A stretch of DNA of 64,000 bases, taken from positions 1-64,000 of the IMG/VR virus record IMGVR_UViG_3300024999_000080; one strand, given 5' to 3'. This document shows, piece after piece, positions 29,358 to 38,619 of this stretch. The notes under the pieces are model-generated. The model made no database searches. It was not told the DNA's origin and worked only from the letters and a program-made list of their open reading frames with translations. Source of the stretch: a virus. Each line of letters opens with the position of its first letter. The stretch's first letter is position 1. The translations under genes were made by a program, and so were the position numbers.

Positions 29358-29774
29358 ATGCAAAATGTAAGTGTAAGTGTAAGTGTAAGTGTAAATAAAG
29401 TTTCACAAGAGATAAAAAGAGGAGATATTTGGTTAGCAGAATTAGAAGGAAGTAAAGGTTCAGAAATGAAAATGGTACGCCCCGTTGTAATCATTCAAAA
29501 TAATTTAGGGAATAAATATAGCCCATGTTGCACTATAATTCCATTGACTAGTAAGGTTGGGAAACGATGGATGCCCACTCACACAACCCTACATAAGACG
29601 GTTTGCTTATCAACTTTGAGTATTGCTCTCGCAGAACAGGTTGCAACGATTTCAAAGGAACGATTGACAAAATTTATTGGAGTGGTCGAAAAGTCAGAAA
29701 TAGTTGCTATTGAAGATGCTATTATGATTCAGTTGGGAATCAAACCAAGAAATAATATTGCGTATGCAAATTAA
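29358..29774 (+). CDS. mazF: MazF/PemK endoribonuclease, no adjacent antitoxin
   Basis: KRGDIWLAEL, GSEMKMVRPVVIIQNN.GN..SP, PLTS, PTH, AEQV.TISKERL. Confidence 0.88.
   Translation: MQNVSVSVSVSVNKVSQEIKRGDIWLAELEGSKGSEMKMVRPVVIIQNNLGNKYSPCCTIIPLTSKVGKRWMPTHTTLHKTVCLSTLSIALAEQVATISKERLTKFIGVVEKSEIVAIEDAIMIQLGIKPRNNIAYAN
29367..29394 (+). repeat. (GTAAGT)4 in-frame microsatellite encoding VSVSVSVS
   Basis: Direct reading. Confidence 0.9.
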
Positions 29775-29820: not shown

Positions 29821-31374
29821 TTGGCAAAGGAGAATTGCCGAGTGCTGTTAACAAAGACGCTAACAATGAAATGGAGTGCAAATAATAAGGTATGGTTTGA
29901 AAGTAAGGGATATACTTTTACTAAATGGAAAGATGAATTTGAGATTAAGGTGGAAGATTTATCTGATGGTTCTGGGGCATTAGTTGATGTCCAATGTGAC
30001 GGATGTGGAGAAATATTAACTAATATGAAATGGCAATCATATATAAGAAGTTCTAAGAAAGATGGTAAATATTATTGTAAAAAATGTTCTTGTAAATTAT
30101 TTGATGGTGAAAATCAGAGAAAAACTAAGTTAAAAAGTAGCAAATCCTTTTACGATTGGTGCTATGAAAATTTACCAAGAGCAATAGCAAATTATATATT
30201 ATCAAAATGGGATTATGCTTTAAATATCAATAAGAACGGCAATATAATAAGTCCTAAAGATGTTAGTTTTAGTTCTACAGGTTTTGACGGTAAAGGATAT
30301 TGGTTTAAATGCCTTAAATATCCTGAACATGGATCTGAACAGAAACGTATTAGTAATTTTGTTAGCGGAATGGGTTTAGGTAACGTTATTACTTGCATTC
30401 AATGTAACATTATTTCTATTACCCATCCACATTTAATAAAATATCTGGTAAATAAAGAAGATGCGAATAAATATTCTTTTGGTTCAAATGAAAAAATACC
30501 CATGAATTGTGTTAATTGTGGATATGAAAAAAAATTAAGTTTTAATAAATTAGTAAGTAGAGGTTTCCCTTGTCCAAGGTGTTCAGATGGTATAAGCTAT
30601 CCTGAAAAATTTCTATTTTCATTCTTAGAACAATTAAATTTATATTTTAACTTTCAATTAACAAAAACAACTTTCAAATGGTGTGGCAAATATAAATATG
30701 ACTTTTACATAGAAATAATTAATGGAATAGTTGAGGCAGGAGGTTTGCAACACTATGACGATACTAAAGGTAGAAATTGGGGAGCATCATTAGAAGAAAT
30801 ACAAGAAAATGATTTCGACAAGGAATGGATTGCTAGAATAAATAAAATTAAGAATTACATAATTTTAGATTGTAGATATTCTGATATGAAATGGATTAAG
30901 CAATCTATAATGAAGTCTAGGTTGCTTATATTAGGATTTAAAGAGGAAGATATCGATTGGCTAAAGTGTCATGAGGCGGGTTGTAATAGTTTGGTTAAAA
31001 TTTCCTGTGATCTATGGAATAATGGAATGAAAAATACATCACAGATAGCAGATATAATAAAGGTGCATAGGGCTACTATTGTAAACTACTTAAAACAAGG
31101 AGTTAAACTTGAATGGTGTGACTATGATCCTAAAATAGCGATGACTGGTAACTATAGTAGAAGTGTTATATGTATAACTACTAGGGAGATATTTAATTCA
31201 ATTGCTGAAGCAGGAAACGTTTATAAAACAGATTGTAGTAGTATATCAAAATGTAGTAAAAATAAAAAGAAATACTCAGGATTACATTCAGAAACGGGAG
31301 ATAAATTAAAATGGATGTATTTAGTAGATTATGAGAATATGGTTAAATATCAAAATAATAATAAACCTTCATAA
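29821..31374 (+). CDS. Zn-ribbon + PD-(D/E)XK/Vsr-like endonuclease + NUMOD1-like (homing-endonuclease-type) protein
   Basis: Multiple CxxC; SYPEKF; YDFYI...IVEAGGLQHY; C-terminal VICITTREIFNSIAEA. Confidence 0.7.
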   Translation: MAKENCRVLLTKTLTMKWSANNKVWFESKGYTFTKWKDEFEIKVEDLSDGSGALVDVQCDGCGEILTNMKWQSYIRSSKKDGKYYCKKCSCKLFDGENQRKTKLKSSKSFYDWCYENLPRAIANYILSKWDYALNINKNGNIISPKDVSFSSTGFDGKGYWFKCLKYPEHGSEQKRISNFVSGMGLGNVITCIQCNIISITHPHLIKYLVNKEDANKYSFGSNEKIPMNCVNCGYEKKLSFNKLVSRGFPCPRCSDGISYPEKFLFSFLEQLNLYFNFQLTKTTFKWCGKYKYDFYIEIINGIVEAGGLQHYDDTKGRNWGASLEEIQENDFDKEWIARINKIKNYIILDCRYSDMKWIKQSIMKSRLLILGFKEEDIDWLKCHEAGCNSLVKISCDLWNNGMKNTSQIADIIKVHRATIVNYLKQGVKLEWCDYDPKIAMTGNYSRSVICITTREIFNSIAEAGNVYKTDCSSISKCSKNKKKYSGLHSETGDKLKWMYLVDYENMVKYQNNNKPS

Positions 31375-31422
31375 AATATATAAGTAAATATAACTAAGAT
31401 AAAGGAGAGATAATATAAATAG

Positions 31423-32043
31423 ATGGTTGAAACATTAATATTCAGTATTTTGTGCCTAAAAACAAAATTATATTTAAAGCTAGGCAAATTCCAAATACAT
31501 AAAGAATCATATCTAGTTAAACCAATACTAAAACAATGGAGTATTTATCCGGTAATACTTATGTCATTAATATATTGTATTTTTCAATATATGATTTTAA
31601 ACCATGATTATAGTTTTATACCATATCAAAAGATATTTAAAGATGCCTTGATCATGTCATACATAATATTAGGAGTCGATATTTTATTTAGGAATAAAAT
31701 ATATAAACCATTTATATTTGCTTGTTATAGTTTATTAAGTGGTTGTGGACTGAACGCTATTGTAATGCATTTTAACAATAAAAAGATGCCAATTTTCCCG
31801 ACATTTACTTATTCGACTGGCTATACACAGTATGATATGATTATAAATTCTTCTAAATATGGAGATTTTCATGTTCTTGGAGATCATACAACAAAATTGA
31901 TATTTTTAGCTGATGTATTCGATGTCTGTGGGTTTTCAATATGGTCAATCGGGGATATTTTGGTCAGGGTATTTGCTTTTATGATGGTATATTATTCAGT
32001 TAAAGAGGTTAATAAAATACATAAGAATAAAATTGTAAATTAA
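31423..32043 (+). CDS. DUF5317-family membrane protein
   Basis: Hydrophobic; LNAIVMHFNNKKMP...TKLIFLAD...SIGDI pattern. Confidence 0.75.
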   Translation: MVETLIFSILCLKTKLYLKLGKFQIHKESYLVKPILKQWSIYPVILMSLIYCIFQYMILNHDYSFIPYQKIFKDALIMSYIILGVDILFRNKIYKPFIFACYSLLSGCGLNAIVMHFNNKKMPIFPTFTYSTGYTQYDMIINSSKYGDFHVLGDHTTKLIFLADVFDVCGFSIWSIGDILVRVFAFMMVYYSVKEVNKIHKNKIVN

Positions 32044-32056
32044 TAAATAAATATAC

Positions 32057-32085
32057 TTGCATTACATTCTTGCATATGGTATACT
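32057..32085 (+). promoter_or_regulatory. sigmaA promoter for receptor-agrD
   Basis: TTGCAT-N17-TATACT with TG extension. Confidence 0.6.
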
Positions 32086-32125
32086 TGTTTTAGGTTAAGA
32101 AATGAATAAGAAAGAGGTAATACAT

Positions 32126-32941
32126 ATGCAAGGTGTAACAAATGCTTTATTGAATACTATTTTGGTAAGCATCCCAGAGGAATCATTTATTGTAATTATG
32201 ACATTGGTTTTTTTAAGAAGATTTGATATGTTGGACATCAGAATGTGGAAACACAGTTTGAAATGGATCATGGTTCCAACCTTGCCCGTAGCAATAATGA
32301 TAAACGTGTTTAGATATATAGTAATAATACCAAAACCATTAATGTCTTTAGCTTCATTTATATTAATGACAATTTTAATAATATTTATGATAATAAAAAA
32401 TAGTGTTGTTTTTGATAAAAAGTTATTATTTAAGACAATAATGTTTACAATATTAAGTTTTGTTGTGGTTGGATTAATAGAATTATTATATTATCCTATT
32501 TCACTCTCCTTGTTACATAAACAGATGTCTTATTTTAATAATAATATCCTATACAATCTTTTATTAGCAATTCCTACAAGAGTATTACAAATATGTATTG
32601 TGGCATTTATCATAATGAGGAAAAACAATGATATTGAGATAAATTTATTCAACACAATTGTGAGAAACAAGTTTTTTACAAAAAGTTTTATAATGATGAT
32701 AACTATTATGTTATTTGTAATAATTTATATGGGGAAGTTGCTAATGTTTGATAATATATTAGTGGAATTACAAGTCATTGATCAATTGTTCATAGTTTTA
32801 ATTGTTATAGTAACACCAATAATTTTAATTACTTGGTTCCTAATGTTTGTTAATTATTTATTAACAAAGGAAAAACAAATACAGCAGACTTACGAAAATC
32901 TTGTTATGCAAGATGACGTAATGCTTGATGTAGAAGATTAA
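32126..32941 (+). CDS. Multi-TM protein resembling an AgrC-type sensor domain, lacking a histidine-kinase domain
   Basis: About 7 hydrophobic segments and a short acidic tail; no H-box/N/G boxes; directly upstream of agrD. Confidence 0.55.
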   Translation: MQGVTNALLNTILVSIPEESFIVIMTLVFLRRFDMLDIRMWKHSLKWIMVPTLPVAIMINVFRYIVIIPKPLMSLASFILMTILIIFMIIKNSVVFDKKLLFKTIMFTILSFVVVGLIELLYYPISLSLLHKQMSYFNNNILYNLLLAIPTRVLQICIVAFIIMRKNNDIEINLFNTIVRNKFFTKSFIMMITIMLFVIIYMGKLLMFDNILVELQVIDQLFIVLIVIVTPIILITWFLMFVNYLLTKEKQIQQTYENLVMQDDVMLDVED

Positions 32942-32961
32942 AGTGAAAGGAGGTGAAATTA

Positions 32962-33078
32962 ATGAAAAAATACGCTATCGTCGCTGGAATGGTTGCCCTG
33001 GCCGCTACAATGTTTACTAATGTTTTTGCTTCTTGGTTGGGTGCACATCAACCAAAGTCCCCTAATTGCATGAAATAA
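32962..33078 (+). CDS. agrD: AgrD-type cyclic lactone autoinducer precursor (38 aa, missed by the ORF track)
   Basis: Perfect RBS AAAGGAGGTGA; MKKYAIVAGMVALAATMFTNVFA-SWLGA-HQPKSPNCMK matches clostridial AgrD leader-[C/S]xxxx-HQPxxP. Confidence 0.88.
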   Translation: MKKYAIVAGMVALAATMFTNVFASWLGAHQPKSPNCMK

Positions 33079-33090
33079 TATTATCCTACA

Positions 33091-33120
33091 TATAGGGAGG
33101 GACTTCGGTTCTTCCCTATA
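33091..33120 (+). terminator. 13-bp hairpin with C(UUCG)G tetraloop after agrD
   Basis: TATAGGGAGGGAC-TTCG-GTTCTTCCCTATA. Confidence 0.75.
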
Positions 33121-33158
33121 ACCATAAAATAATTGTATAGTTAATATTTACATATTTG

Positions 33159-33188
33159 TTGACATTTTGCATATCTTTATAGTAAGAT
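33159..33188 (+). promoter_or_regulatory. sigmaA promoter for HTH-MazF + agrB
   Basis: TTGACA-N18-TAAGAT. Confidence 0.55.
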
Positions 33189-33252
33189 ATTAATAAGGAA
33201 ATAATAAAAAATTATAAATATCTTATTAGAGATGAAGAGGAGATGTGTTATT

Positions 33253-34035
33253 ATGTTAAACAAATTCTTTACTAAAAACACCAATACCGAGGAAAATACC
33301 AAAAAAGATTTCAAAAAATTAGCTAACTATGTAATTCATGCCAAAGGTCATAGGACGATCAATGGATTTGCAGCAGATATGAAAACCGACTCTGAATATC
33401 TAACTCTTGTTGTTAATGCAAGAATAAACTCTTATCCAGATATAAAATTTCTTAAAACCATCGCTGACAATTCTGATGGTAGAGTATCTTTAAAGGATTT
33501 AACATTGGCGTGTGGGTATTCAAATTACACAAATAATGATATGGAACAGATAAAAAATATTGAAGTCAGAAGAGGAACTTTTTGCTATGTTAGTTTGGGT
33601 GATGTCATAGATTCAGAGTATGGGGGAAATCGATTATGTTTAGTTATACAAAATGATGTAGGGAATCACTTCTCAAGCACTTCAATTATTTTACCTCTCA
33701 CTAGTAGAAAACGTAGTAAGCTTCCCACCCACGTTGAAGTTGGGCCTAAAAATTGCGGATTGCCCCAAGAATCAATTATTAGTTGTGAGCAAATTCGTTG
33801 TGTATCAAAAAGGAGACTTAGCCAAAACGGGATAGTTCAGAAGGTTTCAGAATGCCCTTCAGAAATTATGTTATTGGTTGAGGTTGCCATGCTGAAGGCA
33901 CAAGGGGTTATTCATCTTAAAATGAATGAACAAGAAGCAGTTCAATATCTAATGAATATGAACAAGCAAAAAACATATCAGTATCAAAATAATTATAATC
34001 GTAGTGCAAGTCAGCAGGTTGCCTTTGCACGATAA
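33253..34035 (+). CDS. Xre-HTH-MazF/PemK fusion protein
   Basis: N-terminal RTINGFAADM...YPDIKFLKTIA...LTLACGY (HTH-like); C-terminal RRG..., SEYGGNRLCLVIQNDVGN, PLTS, KLPTHV, CEQIRCVSKRRL. Confidence 0.85.
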   Translation: MLNKFFTKNTNTEENTKKDFKKLANYVIHAKGHRTINGFAADMKTDSEYLTLVVNARINSYPDIKFLKTIADNSDGRVSLKDLTLACGYSNYTNNDMEQIKNIEVRRGTFCYVSLGDVIDSEYGGNRLCLVIQNDVGNHFSSTSIILPLTSRKRSKLPTHVEVGPKNCGLPQESIISCEQIRCVSKRRLSQNGIVQKVSECPSEIMLLVEVAMLKAQGVIHLKMNEQEAVQYLMNMNKQKTYQYQNNYNRSASQQVAFAR

Positions 34036-34059
34036 AAGAAAGGAAGATTAAATAATTAA

Positions 34060-34683
34060 ATGAGTTTTATTGAAAATGTTTCAAATTATTCTGCTAGGTG
34101 GTTGGCATCAAAAGTACCTAATGATAAATATCCTACAGTAGAAGATCAAATTGAGGTTTTTACCTATGGTTTTATGGTTATATGGGGATTTATATTTAAG
34201 ATCATATTGATGGTATCATTAGCATATATCTTTAATATTATAATCCCTATTATAATATTAACATTGACTTTCAGTAGTTTAAGAATTATCGCAGGAGGAT
34301 ACCATTTAAAGACCTATAATCGCTGTATGATTATTAGTGCTTTGCAATTCATTGTATCAGCATTAATAATCAAACACACATATCAATATTGGCCTATCCA
34401 AAACATCTATTCTCTGCTATTCTTTTGTGTATTAACGACACTATATATAATCTTCAGATATATTCCAAGAGACACACCCAACAAACCCATTATAGACCCT
34501 TTACAGATTAAAAAGTTTAAACGATGGTCATTATACTACCTTATCGCATGGACAGTTGTAATGACCATCTTCCTACTGTTTAATGTACATATAATTGTAA
34601 TTGCAAGTTGTTTTGGGTTATTGTTGGAGCTTTTTAGTGTGGGTAGAATAGGGCAATCGATATACTCTAAGCTAGATTCATAA
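34060..34683 (+). CDS. agrB: Accessory gene regulator B (AIP-processing membrane peptidase)
   Basis: EVFTYG, LRIIAGGYHLKTYNRC (catalytic H/C), PRDTPNKPI. Confidence 0.92.
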   Translation: MSFIENVSNYSARWLASKVPNDKYPTVEDQIEVFTYGFMVIWGFIFKIILMVSLAYIFNIIIPIIILTLTFSSLRIIAGGYHLKTYNRCMIISALQFIVSALIIKHTYQYWPIQNIYSLLFFCVLTTLYIIFRYIPRDTPNKPIIDPLQIKKFKRWSLYYLIAWTVVMTIFLLFNVHIIVIASCFGLLLELFSVGRIGQSIYSKLDS

Positions 34684-34783
34684 TTAAGTTTACTTATATC
34701 ATTAAAAGGAGGTGATGTTTTATGTGAATTTAATAATATCAATAAAAAAATAATATTTAAATAGAAAGGACATTTATTGCAAA

Positions 34784-35512
34784 TTGGAAACATATAAAGA
34801 TTTAACTGGATTAGTATTTAATAATTGGACTGTTCTAGAATTATCGAACAGAACAAATAAGAAAGATGATAGATATTGGAAATGCCGTTGTAATTGCGAA
34901 TATAAAACAATTAAACATGTAGCAGAAAGGGCATTGTCTTTTGGCACATCAAGAAGTTGTGGTTGTTTACTAGGAAAAATACCATCTAAAAAAATTGCAA
35001 AGGTTAAACCTGATAAAATATTAAAACCTCCAAAAGACAAAATAGTTAAACCTAAAATCGTAAAACCTTTAAAAATTCTAAAGAAAAGAATTTATAAAGT
35101 AAAAATATCTGATAGTAAAGAAATTAAAATATCATACAACAAAAGAATAATGAGCATTTATAGCGGAATGAAACAAAGATGCTATAACCCTAAAGCTAAA
35201 GGTTTTAAATATTATGGGGGCAAAGGAGTTGTTATTTGTGATGAGTGGTTAAATGATAGAAAGTTATTTTATAATTGGGCAATAAACAATGGATATTCTG
35301 ATGAATTAACTATTGACAGAATAGAAAATGATGGGAATTATGAACCAGACAATTGCAGGTGGACTACTTGGGAAGAGCAAGCCAATAATAAATCTAATAC
35401 TGTATATTATAGATATGAAGGAGAAATTAAATCTTCATTGGATTGGTGCAAAGAAACTTGGTTAACTTTTGAAACTTTAAAGAACATATTTGATATACAT
35501 ATCCTGCATTAA
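34784..35512 (+). CDS. HNH homing endonuclease
   Basis: WKCRCNC, SCGC, MKQRCYNP, YGGKG, LTIDRIENDGNYEPDNCRW. Confidence 0.88.
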   Translation: METYKDLTGLVFNNWTVLELSNRTNKKDDRYWKCRCNCEYKTIKHVAERALSFGTSRSCGCLLGKIPSKKIAKVKPDKILKPPKDKIVKPKIVKPLKILKKRIYKVKISDSKEIKISYNKRIMSIYSGMKQRCYNPKAKGFKYYGGKGVVICDEWLNDRKLFYNWAINNGYSDELTIDRIENDGNYEPDNCRWTTWEEQANNKSNTVYYRYEGEIKSSLDWCKETWLTFETLKNIFDIHILH

Positions 35513-36185: not shown

Positions 36186-37544
36186 ATGCTTAAAGAAAAA
36201 TCAGTTGAATTGATCCAAGAATTAAATCCATTAATCGTTAAATATTCTAGCAATGACAAAGTAAGGAAAATAATTTTAGATGAGTTCTCTAAGAGGAATA
36301 TGAGTGGTCGTTTAGCACTTTCTATCCTTAATGAGAAAAGGGCATTATCAACATTAGACATTGATGAAGGTAAAGATTTAGTATTATTATTTGTTTTTAC
36401 AAATGCAATGTATGATGCATTAAATTTTAAAACAGATGATGATTCTCCAATTTTAGGAGATATCGATGAAGTATTAAGTATTGTTCCAAGCAATTTCTTT
36501 AATGAAATAGAAATGCAGAATATGGAAAATTATAAAGAGGAGAAAAGAGTAGAGACGAAAAAGCAATATGTGTTTCATAATATGCTTCGTGCGGCTGATG
36601 GGCATTATAAAGGTTTAGATCATGCTAAACATCTTGCAGAAATATATGCAGAAAATGAAATTATTTATAATTTTAAGAATCAACGTGATCCGCATATTGA
36701 TATTTATGGAGAAAAGAGAATTCAACTTGATAAAAACAAAGTAGAACGAATAATGAATAGACTGCTTGAAGGAATTCAATTTTCAGATGATATCAAATTA
36801 AATATACTTCATGATGGTGAAGATGAATTATATTTTAATGAAAAAACTGGAGATTTAACCTATATTTCTGGAAGTATTAATATATTTGATGGTTATCATA
36901 GACTCATAGCTAATTCTTTAGCTATCGCAAAAAATGCAGAATTAGAGTTTAACTGGGGGTTAGTAATTACTAATTTCAGTGAGAATAAAACATTAGAATT
37001 TATGACCCAAGTTAATGAGCAAAAACCCATGAAAAAAGAGCATATAAAGAACCTAGATTCTTCAAGATTGGGAAATGTTGTAGTAGATGCAATTAGAGAC
37101 ATTGGTACTAGTGAATTTGGTCAGAATATTAAAGAATCAGATGCAGAATTGAAGTTTTCTGGTATGACAAAAAAGTCTACTTTAGCTATTAGTATAGAAG
37201 AATGTTATAAGGAAAAACTAACCAATAGACTTCAAGCAAAGCCCATAGCAAAGCATATTGCTAACGTTATGGACTATATCATTGGATTGAATGTTGAAGA
37301 GTTTATAGAGCGTCCTGACGCTTCTCAGACATATATCAACCACAAGAATATGTTCTCTGGATATGTTGCTTTATCAGAAAGATTATATGATGTAAAGAAT
37401 TGGGAAGACTTATTAGAAGAAATTCTTAATCAAATTGATTTCAGTGTTAAAAATCCTTTCTGGAAAGATATTGGAATATCAGATTCCGATATGAAAAAAT
37501 CTACCAGAAATAACCTATATAAATTCTTTCAGAAATTAGTTTGA
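36186..37544 (+). CDS. DGQHR/DndB (ParB-Srx-like) domain protein, SPbeta YopQ-like
   Basis: NQRD, INIFDGYHRL, QVNEQKPM; position upstream of a recombinase-fold gene. Confidence 0.6.
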   Translation: MLKEKSVELIQELNPLIVKYSSNDKVRKIILDEFSKRNMSGRLALSILNEKRALSTLDIDEGKDLVLLFVFTNAMYDALNFKTDDDSPILGDIDEVLSIVPSNFFNEIEMQNMENYKEEKRVETKKQYVFHNMLRAADGHYKGLDHAKHLAEIYAENEIIYNFKNQRDPHIDIYGEKRIQLDKNKVERIMNRLLEGIQFSDDIKLNILHDGEDELYFNEKTGDLTYISGSINIFDGYHRLIANSLAIAKNAELEFNWGLVITNFSENKTLEFMTQVNEQKPMKKEHIKNLDSSRLGNVVVDAIRDIGTSEFGQNIKESDAELKFSGMTKKSTLAISIEECYKEKLTNRLQAKPIAKHIANVMDYIIGLNVEEFIERPDASQTYINHKNMFSGYVALSERLYDVKNWEDLLEEILNQIDFSVKNPFWKDIGISDSDMKKSTRNNLYKFFQKLV

Positions 37545-37572
37545 TTAATATATTTAATAAGGGGTGTTTAAT

Positions 37573-38619
37573 ATGTCCATCAATGAAGTTAACGAAGAAT
37601 TGCAAGATGAAGAGGTAGTATTTGAGGTTGATTCAGAAGTTAAAAAGGAGTTTCTAGAAAATCAATTAAAATCTACTAGAAGTTTCTACACTTATGTCCT
37701 CAAAAGAGCAGATGAATTTGAAACACAGGTTGGCAAGAAAATTTATGACTTCAATATTGAAGATCGTGATGAAATGCTAACTGTTCAATTCAAGAATAAG
37801 AACAAATGGACGTTTCAATCTGCTTTATCTCCTTTAAAAACTTATGTTGACTTCTGTATATCTAAAAGTTTAGTTAGACATAATGAGAACAGATTTATGA
37901 CCATTCTTCCTGCTGATTATAAGGATTATATTAATGACCAAGCACAATGTAATTCTTATATTCCTTTATCTAAATCTAGAGAACTTCAAAAAAGGTTGAA
38001 AAATGATCAAGATAAATTGATTATAGAGTTATCTAGTTTGTCTGTCAGAGGAAGAACTGAAAAGGGGAATACTCTTGAAGAACTCGTAAATTTAAAGGTT
38101 AAAGATATTAAATGGAAGACTAAAGAATTATATCTTACTAAAAACAATGGTGAACAAAGATATATTGAAACTGATGATTACACATTAGGTTTACTCAAAC
38201 GAGTTATAAATCAAACTTTCTATGTCTCTAATAATGGGTTAAAATCTAAGAAAAATGAGGATGGTATTTATGAAGAGACTAATAGAGGTAGGGCTATAAG
38301 TCCGACTGAATATGTATTTAGAGTTCCCGGAAAGAACAGATTAGGTAAAGTAGATTATCAATTTTTCACTAGCAGAATTCAAAGGATGCAAGGTTGGTTA
38401 GAAGCTCCTTATTTGACTAGTTCGAATTTATACTTCTCAGCGATTTTAGACTATGCAAAAGAGAAGATGGATGAAAAAAAGGCAAAAGGAGAAAAATGTG
38501 AATTAACCAGAGAAGACTATATTCAAATTAATGAGCGATTTGAGTTTGGTGAAAATGGAGAAAAATATGTATTCAAAACCAGAGATTTAGTTAAAATGTA
38601 TTTTGGTAATGGAGAGTAA
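37573..38619 (+). CDS. Tyrosine-recombinase-fold protein with degenerate catalytic box II; YopR/MrpR-like master repressor candidate
   Basis: SAM-like N-terminus (LKTYVDFC); RG....LEELVNLKVKDI box I; TSSNLYFS replaces HxLRH. Confidence 0.65.
   Translation: MSINEVNEELQDEEVVFEVDSEVKKEFLENQLKSTRSFYTYVLKRADEFETQVGKKIYDFNIEDRDEMLTVQFKNKNKWTFQSALSPLKTYVDFCISKSLVRHNENRFMTILPADYKDYINDQAQCNSYIPLSKSRELQKRLKNDQDKLIIELSSLSVRGRTEKGNTLEELVNLKVKDIKWKTKELYLTKNNGEQRYIETDDYTLGLLKRVINQTFYVSNNGLKSKKNEDGIYEETNRGRAISPTEYVFRVPGKNRLGKVDYQFFTSRIQRMQGWLEAPYLTSSNLYFSAILDYAKEKMDEKKAKGEKCELTREDYIQINERFEFGENGEKYVFKTRDLVKMYFGNGE

Follow-up and report, generated by a model that had tools for sequence, protein, structure and literature searches.

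The AgrD family, autoinducing peptides (AIPs) closed as lactones through serine, and agr genes on phages are all already known. In C. thermocellum, the AgrD leader is cut at A24|S25, the ring runs from S25 to F29 and is followed by Y30 and P35, and the cyclic pentapeptide was found by mass spectrometry (MS) (PMC5322536). The AIP of C. perfringens is a tail-less five-membered ring (PMC7300355), and a functional lactone is made by S. intermedius (Ji et al. 2005, as cited in PMC10482373). Phages have been known to carry agr genes since 2014 (PMC3901668), and we found no paper that gives one of them a function. The master repressor of phage SPbeta is YopR/MrpR (PMC10516654), and arbitrium of phage phi3T acts via MazF (PMC10769878).

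We analyzed a window of 64,000 nucleotides, positions 1 to 64,000 of the IMG/VR virus record IMGVR_UViG_3300024999_000080. The whole agr-carrying record is 76.9 kb long and 44% complete by CheckV. A 38-codon open reading frame (ORF) in the window quite probably encodes a serine-type AgrD, the precursor of a cyclic peptide, in a large phage that resembles SPbeta and has Clostridium-type hosts. Three sequencing runs of one study, all labelled groundwater metagenome, contain this DNA; these are DNA runs, and no RNA run is listed for it. A search of 50,697 records of isolated phages found nothing similar at the DNA level, nothing similar to the membrane protein encoded next to agrD, and for AgrB no hit at E ≤ 1e-3 (noise only, at E of about 10).

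The agrD gene and the hairpin behind it

The agrD gene lies on the plus strand at 32962 to 33078, with an ATG at 32962 and the stop codon at 33076 to 33078, and it starts 20 nt past the stop of an upstream gene for a 279-aa membrane protein. The 38-aa propeptide is laid out as a leader of residues 1 to 23 (MKK, a hydrophobic core, and VFA), a predicted ring of residues 24 to 28 (SWLGA), and a tail of residues 29 to 38 (HQPKSPNCMK). The predicted ring codons Ser24-Trp-Leu-Gly-Ala28 are at 33031 to 33045, Ser24 being encoded by TCT at 33031 to 33033. The Shine-Dalgarno sequence AAAGGAGGTGA on the same strand (32946 to 32956) places GGAGG with 8-nt spacing to the ATG and keeps its core unchanged in five orthologous loci, which bears out the perfect ribosome-binding site claimed in the first-pass annotation. 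A GTG at 32953 was considered as the start and rejected, as it falls within the Shine-Dalgarno sequence and the orthologues begin at the MKK ATG.

The product matches the NCBIfam model TIGR04223 (AgrD family cyclic lactone autoinducer peptide) with 19.9 bits, a margin of just 0.9 bits over the curated cut-off of 19, and a six-frame search of the genome gives 18.2 bits. It is the sole match to this model within the 76.9-kb record; the AgrDs of five relatives score 20.9 to 29.1 bits, and none of 14 control genomes has a match above the cut-off. A Pfam search of the 38-aa product returned no family at E ≤ 0.1, and PF05931 (AgrD) was not matched; PF05931 is the staphylococcal-type AgrD model, and its miss was not counted against the AgrD identity. 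Phage variants of the peptide were collected by a profile search of a 5.8-billion-protein collection, which gave 16 clusters at 90% identity, fifteen of them other than the window's own and located in related large phage contigs. Pairs of agrD orthologues have dN/dS values of 0.07 to 0.24 at dS values of 0.87 to 1.8, which are saturated, and the gene is by this measure under purifying selection. Judged by these data, the ORF is more than a chance reading frame. The TIGR04223 match, the linked AgrB, the 16 peptide clusters, and the dN/dS values together make it well supported that the 38 codons are a real gene and a member of the AgrD family. The earlier description of an unannotated 38-aa AgrD thus holds in its identification of the family, which the model match, AgrB, and the orthologues support, but "unannotated" applies just to the ORF track from which it was made: the public collection already has the identical 38-aa sequence as a called protein (P0001), and three orthologue clusters carry the name "cyclic lactone autoinducer peptide," two given by NCBI and one by JGI.

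Common to the 16 phage variants is VFA (or NMA or VLA) followed by S-xxxx-[H/Y/N]QPxxP. All 16 have serine at the column of the ring nucleophile, encoded by TCT, TCA, or TCG, and alanine at position −1; valine is at position −3 in 14 of them, and P31 and P34 are invariant. Variation within the peptide is greatest at ring positions 2 to 5, where entropies are 1.3 to 2.0 bits, and there are 15 distinct rings among the 16 variants. At least 15 ring sequences among the relatives is the pattern expected of specificity groups. The C-terminal cysteine of the tail (NCMK) was considered as an alternative nucleophile and rejected: it lies outside the ring column, is Phe in phage variant P0157, and in a number of bacterial tails gives way to Ser, Ala, or Asn. 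A 2.6-kb contig (C327 of genome G281, locus L021) encodes at 1525 to 1659 a 44-aa AgrD-like peptide with a serine-type ring, SAFWL, and the tail NEPRIPSS, paired with a member of the 279-aa protein family (E = 2.6e-66); the cassette is a more distant one.

Just behind agrD, at 33091 to 33120 on the plus strand, is a hairpin in which a 13-bp stem carries a UUCG loop; its folding energy is −19.2 kcal/mol, with z = −3.2 relative to shuffled sequences. The C(UUCG)G hairpin pointed out earlier is hence present, and it is conserved in five orthologous loci. Changes in one arm of the stem are matched in the other, as in GGGAGGG/CCTTCCC versus GGAGAGG/CCTCTCC, so that the pairing is preserved; such compensatory changes are seen in four phage relatives. 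The hairpin has no U-tract and was not called a terminator, no terminator-like site being found, and an Rfam search of 31000 to 35000 gave no family, the hairpin included. It is possibly a 3′-end or stabilizer element of a transcript covering the genes of a DUF5317 protein, the membrane protein, and agrD. A promoter-like site, TTGACA-18-TAAGAT, lies at 33159 to 33188, after the hairpin and ahead of the next gene; promoter-like sites are no commoner here than in shuffled sequences.

The agr cassette and its relatives in phages and Clostridiaceae

An agrB gene encoding the processing peptidase/cyclase (34060 to 34683, plus strand; PF04647, E = 3.4e-35) lies 1 kb downstream of agrD on the same strand, and agrB was found in all related loci. 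H82 and C89 of the protein are invariant in the alignment and 7 residues apart, the spacing of H77 and C84, which we take to be the catalytic pair of S. aureus AgrB. The cassette also occurs, with AgrDs that score above the TIGR04223 cut-off throughout, in six viral contigs of 47 to 230 kb and in one contig of a Clostridium sp. metagenome-assembled genome (MAG); the latter contig is the only locus obtained from a narrow-pattern AgrB scan of genome contigs, and it is the only named relative.

Upstream of agrD, also on the plus strand, are two genes for membrane proteins. The product of the first (31423 to 32043; PF17248, E = 5.5e-19) is the DUF5317 membrane protein, encoded by the first gene of clostridial-type agr operons, and the same family is found upstream in the bacterial loci. 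The second gene (32102 to 32941), directly upstream of agrD, encodes the 279-aa polytopic membrane protein. By hhalign (probability 96.1%, E = 3.1e-9), its N-terminal part of about 170 aa is homologous to a protein of about 155 aa encoded upstream of agrB, in the position of CPE1562, in clostridial operons; a C-terminal extension of about 100 aa follows the CPE1562-like part. Residues P25, E26, and P158 hardly vary. The protein is modelled by AF2 with a pLDDT of 95.3; fold searches with this model gave no Foldseek hit at E ≤ 0.001, and VIA-align reached a Z score of 7.2 at best, no higher than noise for helical proteins. The family is absent from Pfam and has 169 stand-alone representatives, and the protein's own cluster is mainly viral by its Atlas description. 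All 150 listed members are 326 aa or shorter, and thus no kinase domain is present among them. The idea that the protein is a remnant of AgrC was dropped in view of the homology of its N-terminal 170 aa or so to the agr operon protein upstream of agrB. The same kinship gives a handle on the function of the CPE1562-type gene, which is uncharacterized and common in clostridial agr operons. Two related loci (L007 and L003) have a second paralogue of the 279-aa protein downstream of agrB, with 45 to 47% identity.

Between agrD and agrB, on the plus strand, is a gene for a fusion of a helix-turn-helix (HTH) domain with MazF/PemK (33253 to 34035; PF02452, E = 4.7e-21; MazF-like in PHROG). It is kept in all related phage loci, with orthologues 55 to 79% identical. 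A free-standing MazF/PemK gene of 138 codons lies upstream of the cassette at 29358 to 29774 and is present in all four relatives with 37 to 38% identity; a MazE-like antitoxin was not noticed beside it. Genes of homing/HNH endonucleases at 29821 to 31374 and 34784 to 35512 interrupt the cassette and vary in presence and position among the relatives, the 242-aa endonuclease having a counterpart in L007 alone, at another place, and the 517-aa endonuclease having none in L007.

By gene content, the phage has an agr operon of the C. perfringens type in rearranged order, with an added HTH-MazF fusion. The genes for DUF5317, the membrane protein, AgrB, and AgrD are all there on one strand, and about 35 of the 42 bacterial loci show the pattern of DUF5317, small membrane protein, and agrB. 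The nucleophile and the gene order depart from that type: serine stands in place of cysteine, and agrD lies upstream of agrB with the HTH-MazF gene between them instead of following it. The AgrC kinase and AgrA LytTR regulator of canonical agrBDCA loci are absent from the record of the window and from three relatives. Searches for HATPase_c (PF02518), HATPase_c_5 (PF14501), Response_reg (PF00072), and LytTR (PF04397) found none in these four phage records, one of which is a 100%-complete genome of 230 kb.

We compared the window with four relatives (L007, L003, L008, and L019), i.e., four comparisons of physically adjacent genes. Identities of the membrane protein, AgrD, and HTH-MazF move together at 70/82/79, 66/61/70, and 44/42/55%, and AgrB (66/59/71% identity) and DUF5317 deviate from this pattern. 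This suggests that the block from the membrane protein gene to the HTH-MazF gene (32102 to 34035) is a swappable specificity module.

For a bacterial comparison, we used a sample of about 300 Clostridiaceae genomes; 287 of them could be scored, 151 of the scored genomes had an AgrB relative, and 42 of these loci were taken. They gave 45 distinct AgrD sequences, encoded directly after AgrB in these chromosomal loci, with the layout SA|C-xxxx-YQPEEPKCLREE; the C. perfringens-type CLWFT precursor is among them. These sequences are homologous to the phage AgrDs, and the parallel that had been drawn between leader-SWLGA-HQPKSP and clostridial AgrDs therefore extends to all 45. Cysteine occupies the nucleophile column in 44 of the 45 bacterial AgrDs versus serine in 16 of 16 phage variants, in agreement with the first-pass annotation's placement of serine at the ring position (Fisher's p = 8e-14, a descriptive value, since the sequences are related). 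The sole serine-type bacterial AgrD, from genome G243 (locus L027, 4581 to 5492), has the ring SILNL and the tail YQPKAPKNLK. At this locus, agrD precedes agrB, the order found in the phages, and the DUF5317 and small membrane protein genes are absent.

In the AgrB tree, the phage enzymes and that of G243 form a clade with 99/91 support, G243 being sister to the phage AgrBs and their nearest bacterial enzyme; a long branch leads to the 42 AgrBs of the cysteine type in this unrooted tree with long branches. S. aureus AgrB is unable to process a serine-containing AgrD (PMC10482373). The clade fits this failure, and the serine form of AgrD appears to need its own AgrB lineage. By the same tree, AgrB/AgrD of the phages form an old lineage of their own and are no recent copy of host genes. 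The Clostridium sp. MAG also has a chromosomal-type agr operon (L026, 4195 to 5898) with DUF5317, a small membrane protein, agrB, and agrD with the ring CFWFS, followed by a gene for a membrane-anchored GGDEF + HD-GYP protein that might connect AIP signalling with c-di-GMP.

Directly downstream of the cassette and on the plus strand are a yopQ-like gene (36186 to 37544; tblastn against SPbeta yopQ, 1e-19; pairwise E = 2e-26) and a yopR-like gene (37564 to 38619; pairwise E = 4e-7 against YopR, over the N-terminal 140 residues). The YopQ homologue has 452 aa with a weak match to DndB, and the YopR-like protein has 351 aa with a weak match to tyrosine recombinases. By homology, this pair is SPbeta-type lysogeny control. 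On the SPbeta map, the arbitrium genes lie just upstream of the yopQ/yopR module.

Predicted product and role of the peptide

In the processing that we propose, AgrB would cut past Ala28 and hold the peptide as an acyl-enzyme, and attack by the Ser24 hydroxyl would close a five-residue lactone. The leader would be removed at VFA|S, the counterpart of A24|S25 in the C. thermocellum AgrD and of SA|C in that of C. perfringens; we infer this N-terminal cleavage from the −3/−1 rule and from analogy. The result would be the tail-less cyclo(SWLGA), with a calculated neutral monoisotopic mass of about 514.25 Da. By analogy with the described AIPs, a tail-less five-residue lactone closed through Ser24 is the likely product. 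Its ester would adjoin a free α-amine, and the lactone may therefore rearrange by an O-to-N shift to a head-to-tail lactam.

Such a rearrangement leads to another reading of the product, in which the secreted form is a homodetic head-to-tail cyclic pentapeptide or, with the leader cut elsewhere, an N-terminally tailed peptide. We regard this as a real but lesser possibility. Tail-less AIPs of clostridia and Listeria closed by cysteine as thiolactones spontaneously become lactams (PMC8251862; PMC11297923), and the fate of serine-closed tail-less lactones is stated as unsettled in PMC8251862. Lactone and lactam are isobaric, and the MS identification in C. thermocellum separates them only with standards of both; however, the natural product there matched a synthetic cyclic peptide, called a lactone in that work (PMC5322536), and the conserved −1 Ala and −3 Val favor a cut right before the serine, i.e., a tail-less product. 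That the ORF is not an AgrB substrate at all but a small secreted or membrane peptide resembling AgrD, such as a signal-peptide-like micropeptide or a lysis helper, is very improbable. The marginal TIGR04223 score in the window, a leader like an ordinary Sec signal peptide, and the presence of another gene between agrD and agrB would fit it. Yet the orthologues reach 29 bits, and conservation is of the AgrD type, with an invariant nucleophile, a hypervariable four-residue ring interior, and the QPxxP tail. The homology to 45 bacterial AgrDs encoded directly after AgrB and the agrB in every related locus also speak for a substrate of AgrB.

With respect to the role, our preferred reading, held tentatively and somewhat short of an even bet, is that the peptide would be the phage's own extracellular signal, specific to a pherotype, and would feed the yopQ/yopR-like lysis-lysogeny module. 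We prefer it because of the co-variation of the block and the many ring variants. The signal would be read via the co-varying membrane protein and the neighboring HTH-MazF, with no AgrC/AgrA pair, which the phage lacks. The fuller form of the proposal is more speculative: the serine-closed peptide may be a phage-to-phage signal of many pherotypes, a cyclic counterpart of arbitrium, running from its own AgrB through the seven-helix membrane protein and HTH-MazF to the yopQ/yopR switch of SPbeta-like Clostridium phages. The bacterial relatives of the 279-aa neighbor are conserved agr operon proteins without an assigned function, and the protein could be a biosynthesis or export helper instead of a receptor. 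Bacterial operons of the C. perfringens type are likewise without a linked kinase (PMC7300355), and so the missing AgrC/AgrA of the phage is by itself no argument for a private receptor.

Bacterial operons of this type rely on an unlinked receptor (PMC7300355), and a phage receptor would likewise be unnecessary if the peptide were aimed at the host. It would then be an oxygen-for-sulfur analogue of the host's tail-less thiolactone AIP, most likely an antagonist, acting on a chromosomal receptor of the VirS type or another and reprogramming quorum-controlled functions (e.g., sporulation, toxins, or biofilm) in infection or lysogeny. We consider such a host-directed mimic rather unlikely. Phage and bacterial AgrDs are homologous, with equal ring size and similar aromatic-rich rings, and the lactone forms of AIP-1 and AIP-2 fail to activate S. 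aureus AgrC (PMC10482373). One MAG has both a phage-like contig with the ring SWLWS and a chromosomal-type contig with CFWFS, but the phage-like contig is placed in this MAG by binning only. The ring interior MFFT is found in phage variant P0158 and in bacterial genome G114, but this identity is not significant, as 0.10 such cases are expected and at least one occurs in 10% of column shuffles. Ring diversity among close phages and co-variation with two phage genes are more easily accounted for by a phage-encoded partner, and the old, distinct AgrB/AgrD lineage also counts against a mimic of the host.

A peptide that decides between lysis and lysogeny, as in the preferred reading, would add to phage communication a second family of signals with a different chemistry. 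Should a host receptor be the target instead, the phages would hold a natural collection of lactone versions of the autoinducers of clostridia, some of them related to the C. perfringens signal.

Comparison with described systems

The phage clade stands out by a full operon of the clostridial type for making the peptide, carried by large phages that look temperate, by a clade-wide switch from cysteine to serine tied to its own AgrB lineage, and by a position adjoining lysogeny switch and MazF genes. Among chromosomal systems, C. thermocellum Clo1313_2818 is similar in having serine after the Ala site (A24|S25 there and A23|S24 here), a five-residue ring, an aromatic residue or His after the ring, a conserved proline about 6 residues on, and a tail-less product described as a lactone, which is predicted here. 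Unlike this AgrD, which is chromosomal and unlinked to agrB, the phage AgrD is in a full cassette with AgrB, and the rings differ; the two were compared by description.

The operon CPE1563-CPE1562-agrB-agrD of C. perfringens (PMC2706048, PMC7300355) shares all four gene families with the phage cassette and the AgrD layout in its form SA|C-xxxx-[H/Y]QPEEP. Neither locus has a kinase or regulator, and both have a tail-less five-membered ring, predicted in our case and a CLWFT thiolactone in C. perfringens. They differ in the replacement of cysteine by serine, in the basic phage tail HQPKSPNCMK versus an acidic one, in the separate AgrB lineage, in agrD before agrB with HTH-MazF inserted, and in the C-terminal extension of the membrane protein by about 100 aa. 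The staphylococcal AIP of S. intermedius/pseudintermedius also has serine for the ring cysteine, and there the lactone is functional and a matching AgrB is required (PMC10482373). It differs in its staphylococcal-type AgrD, its exocyclic tail, and its canonical agrBDCA operon, and it is not phage-borne.

Among phages, the C. difficile phage phiCDHM1 with agr3 (agrC-agrB-agrD) and Davies, Emery, and Abouo (PMC3901668) also combine agrB and agrD without a response regulator, and in Davies, Emery, and Abouo the membrane proteins have no kinase domain, as here. The phiCDHM1 cassette keeps a histidine kinase, unlike that of our phage, and all four differ from it in host group, in genome size (up to 230 kb or more here), and in the MazF and yopQ/yopR context. 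With AimR-AimP-AimX, the arbitrium of SPbeta/phi3T (PMC8612738, PMC10769878), the phage cassette shares a small peptide gene upstream of yopQ/yopR-type genes in a large phage and the presence of MazF, which is part of the arbitrium output in phi3T and is encoded in this cassette; the likeness is one of working only. The two are not homologous, and the linear hexapeptide of arbitrium contrasts with what is predicted here to be a cyclic peptide processed by AgrB.
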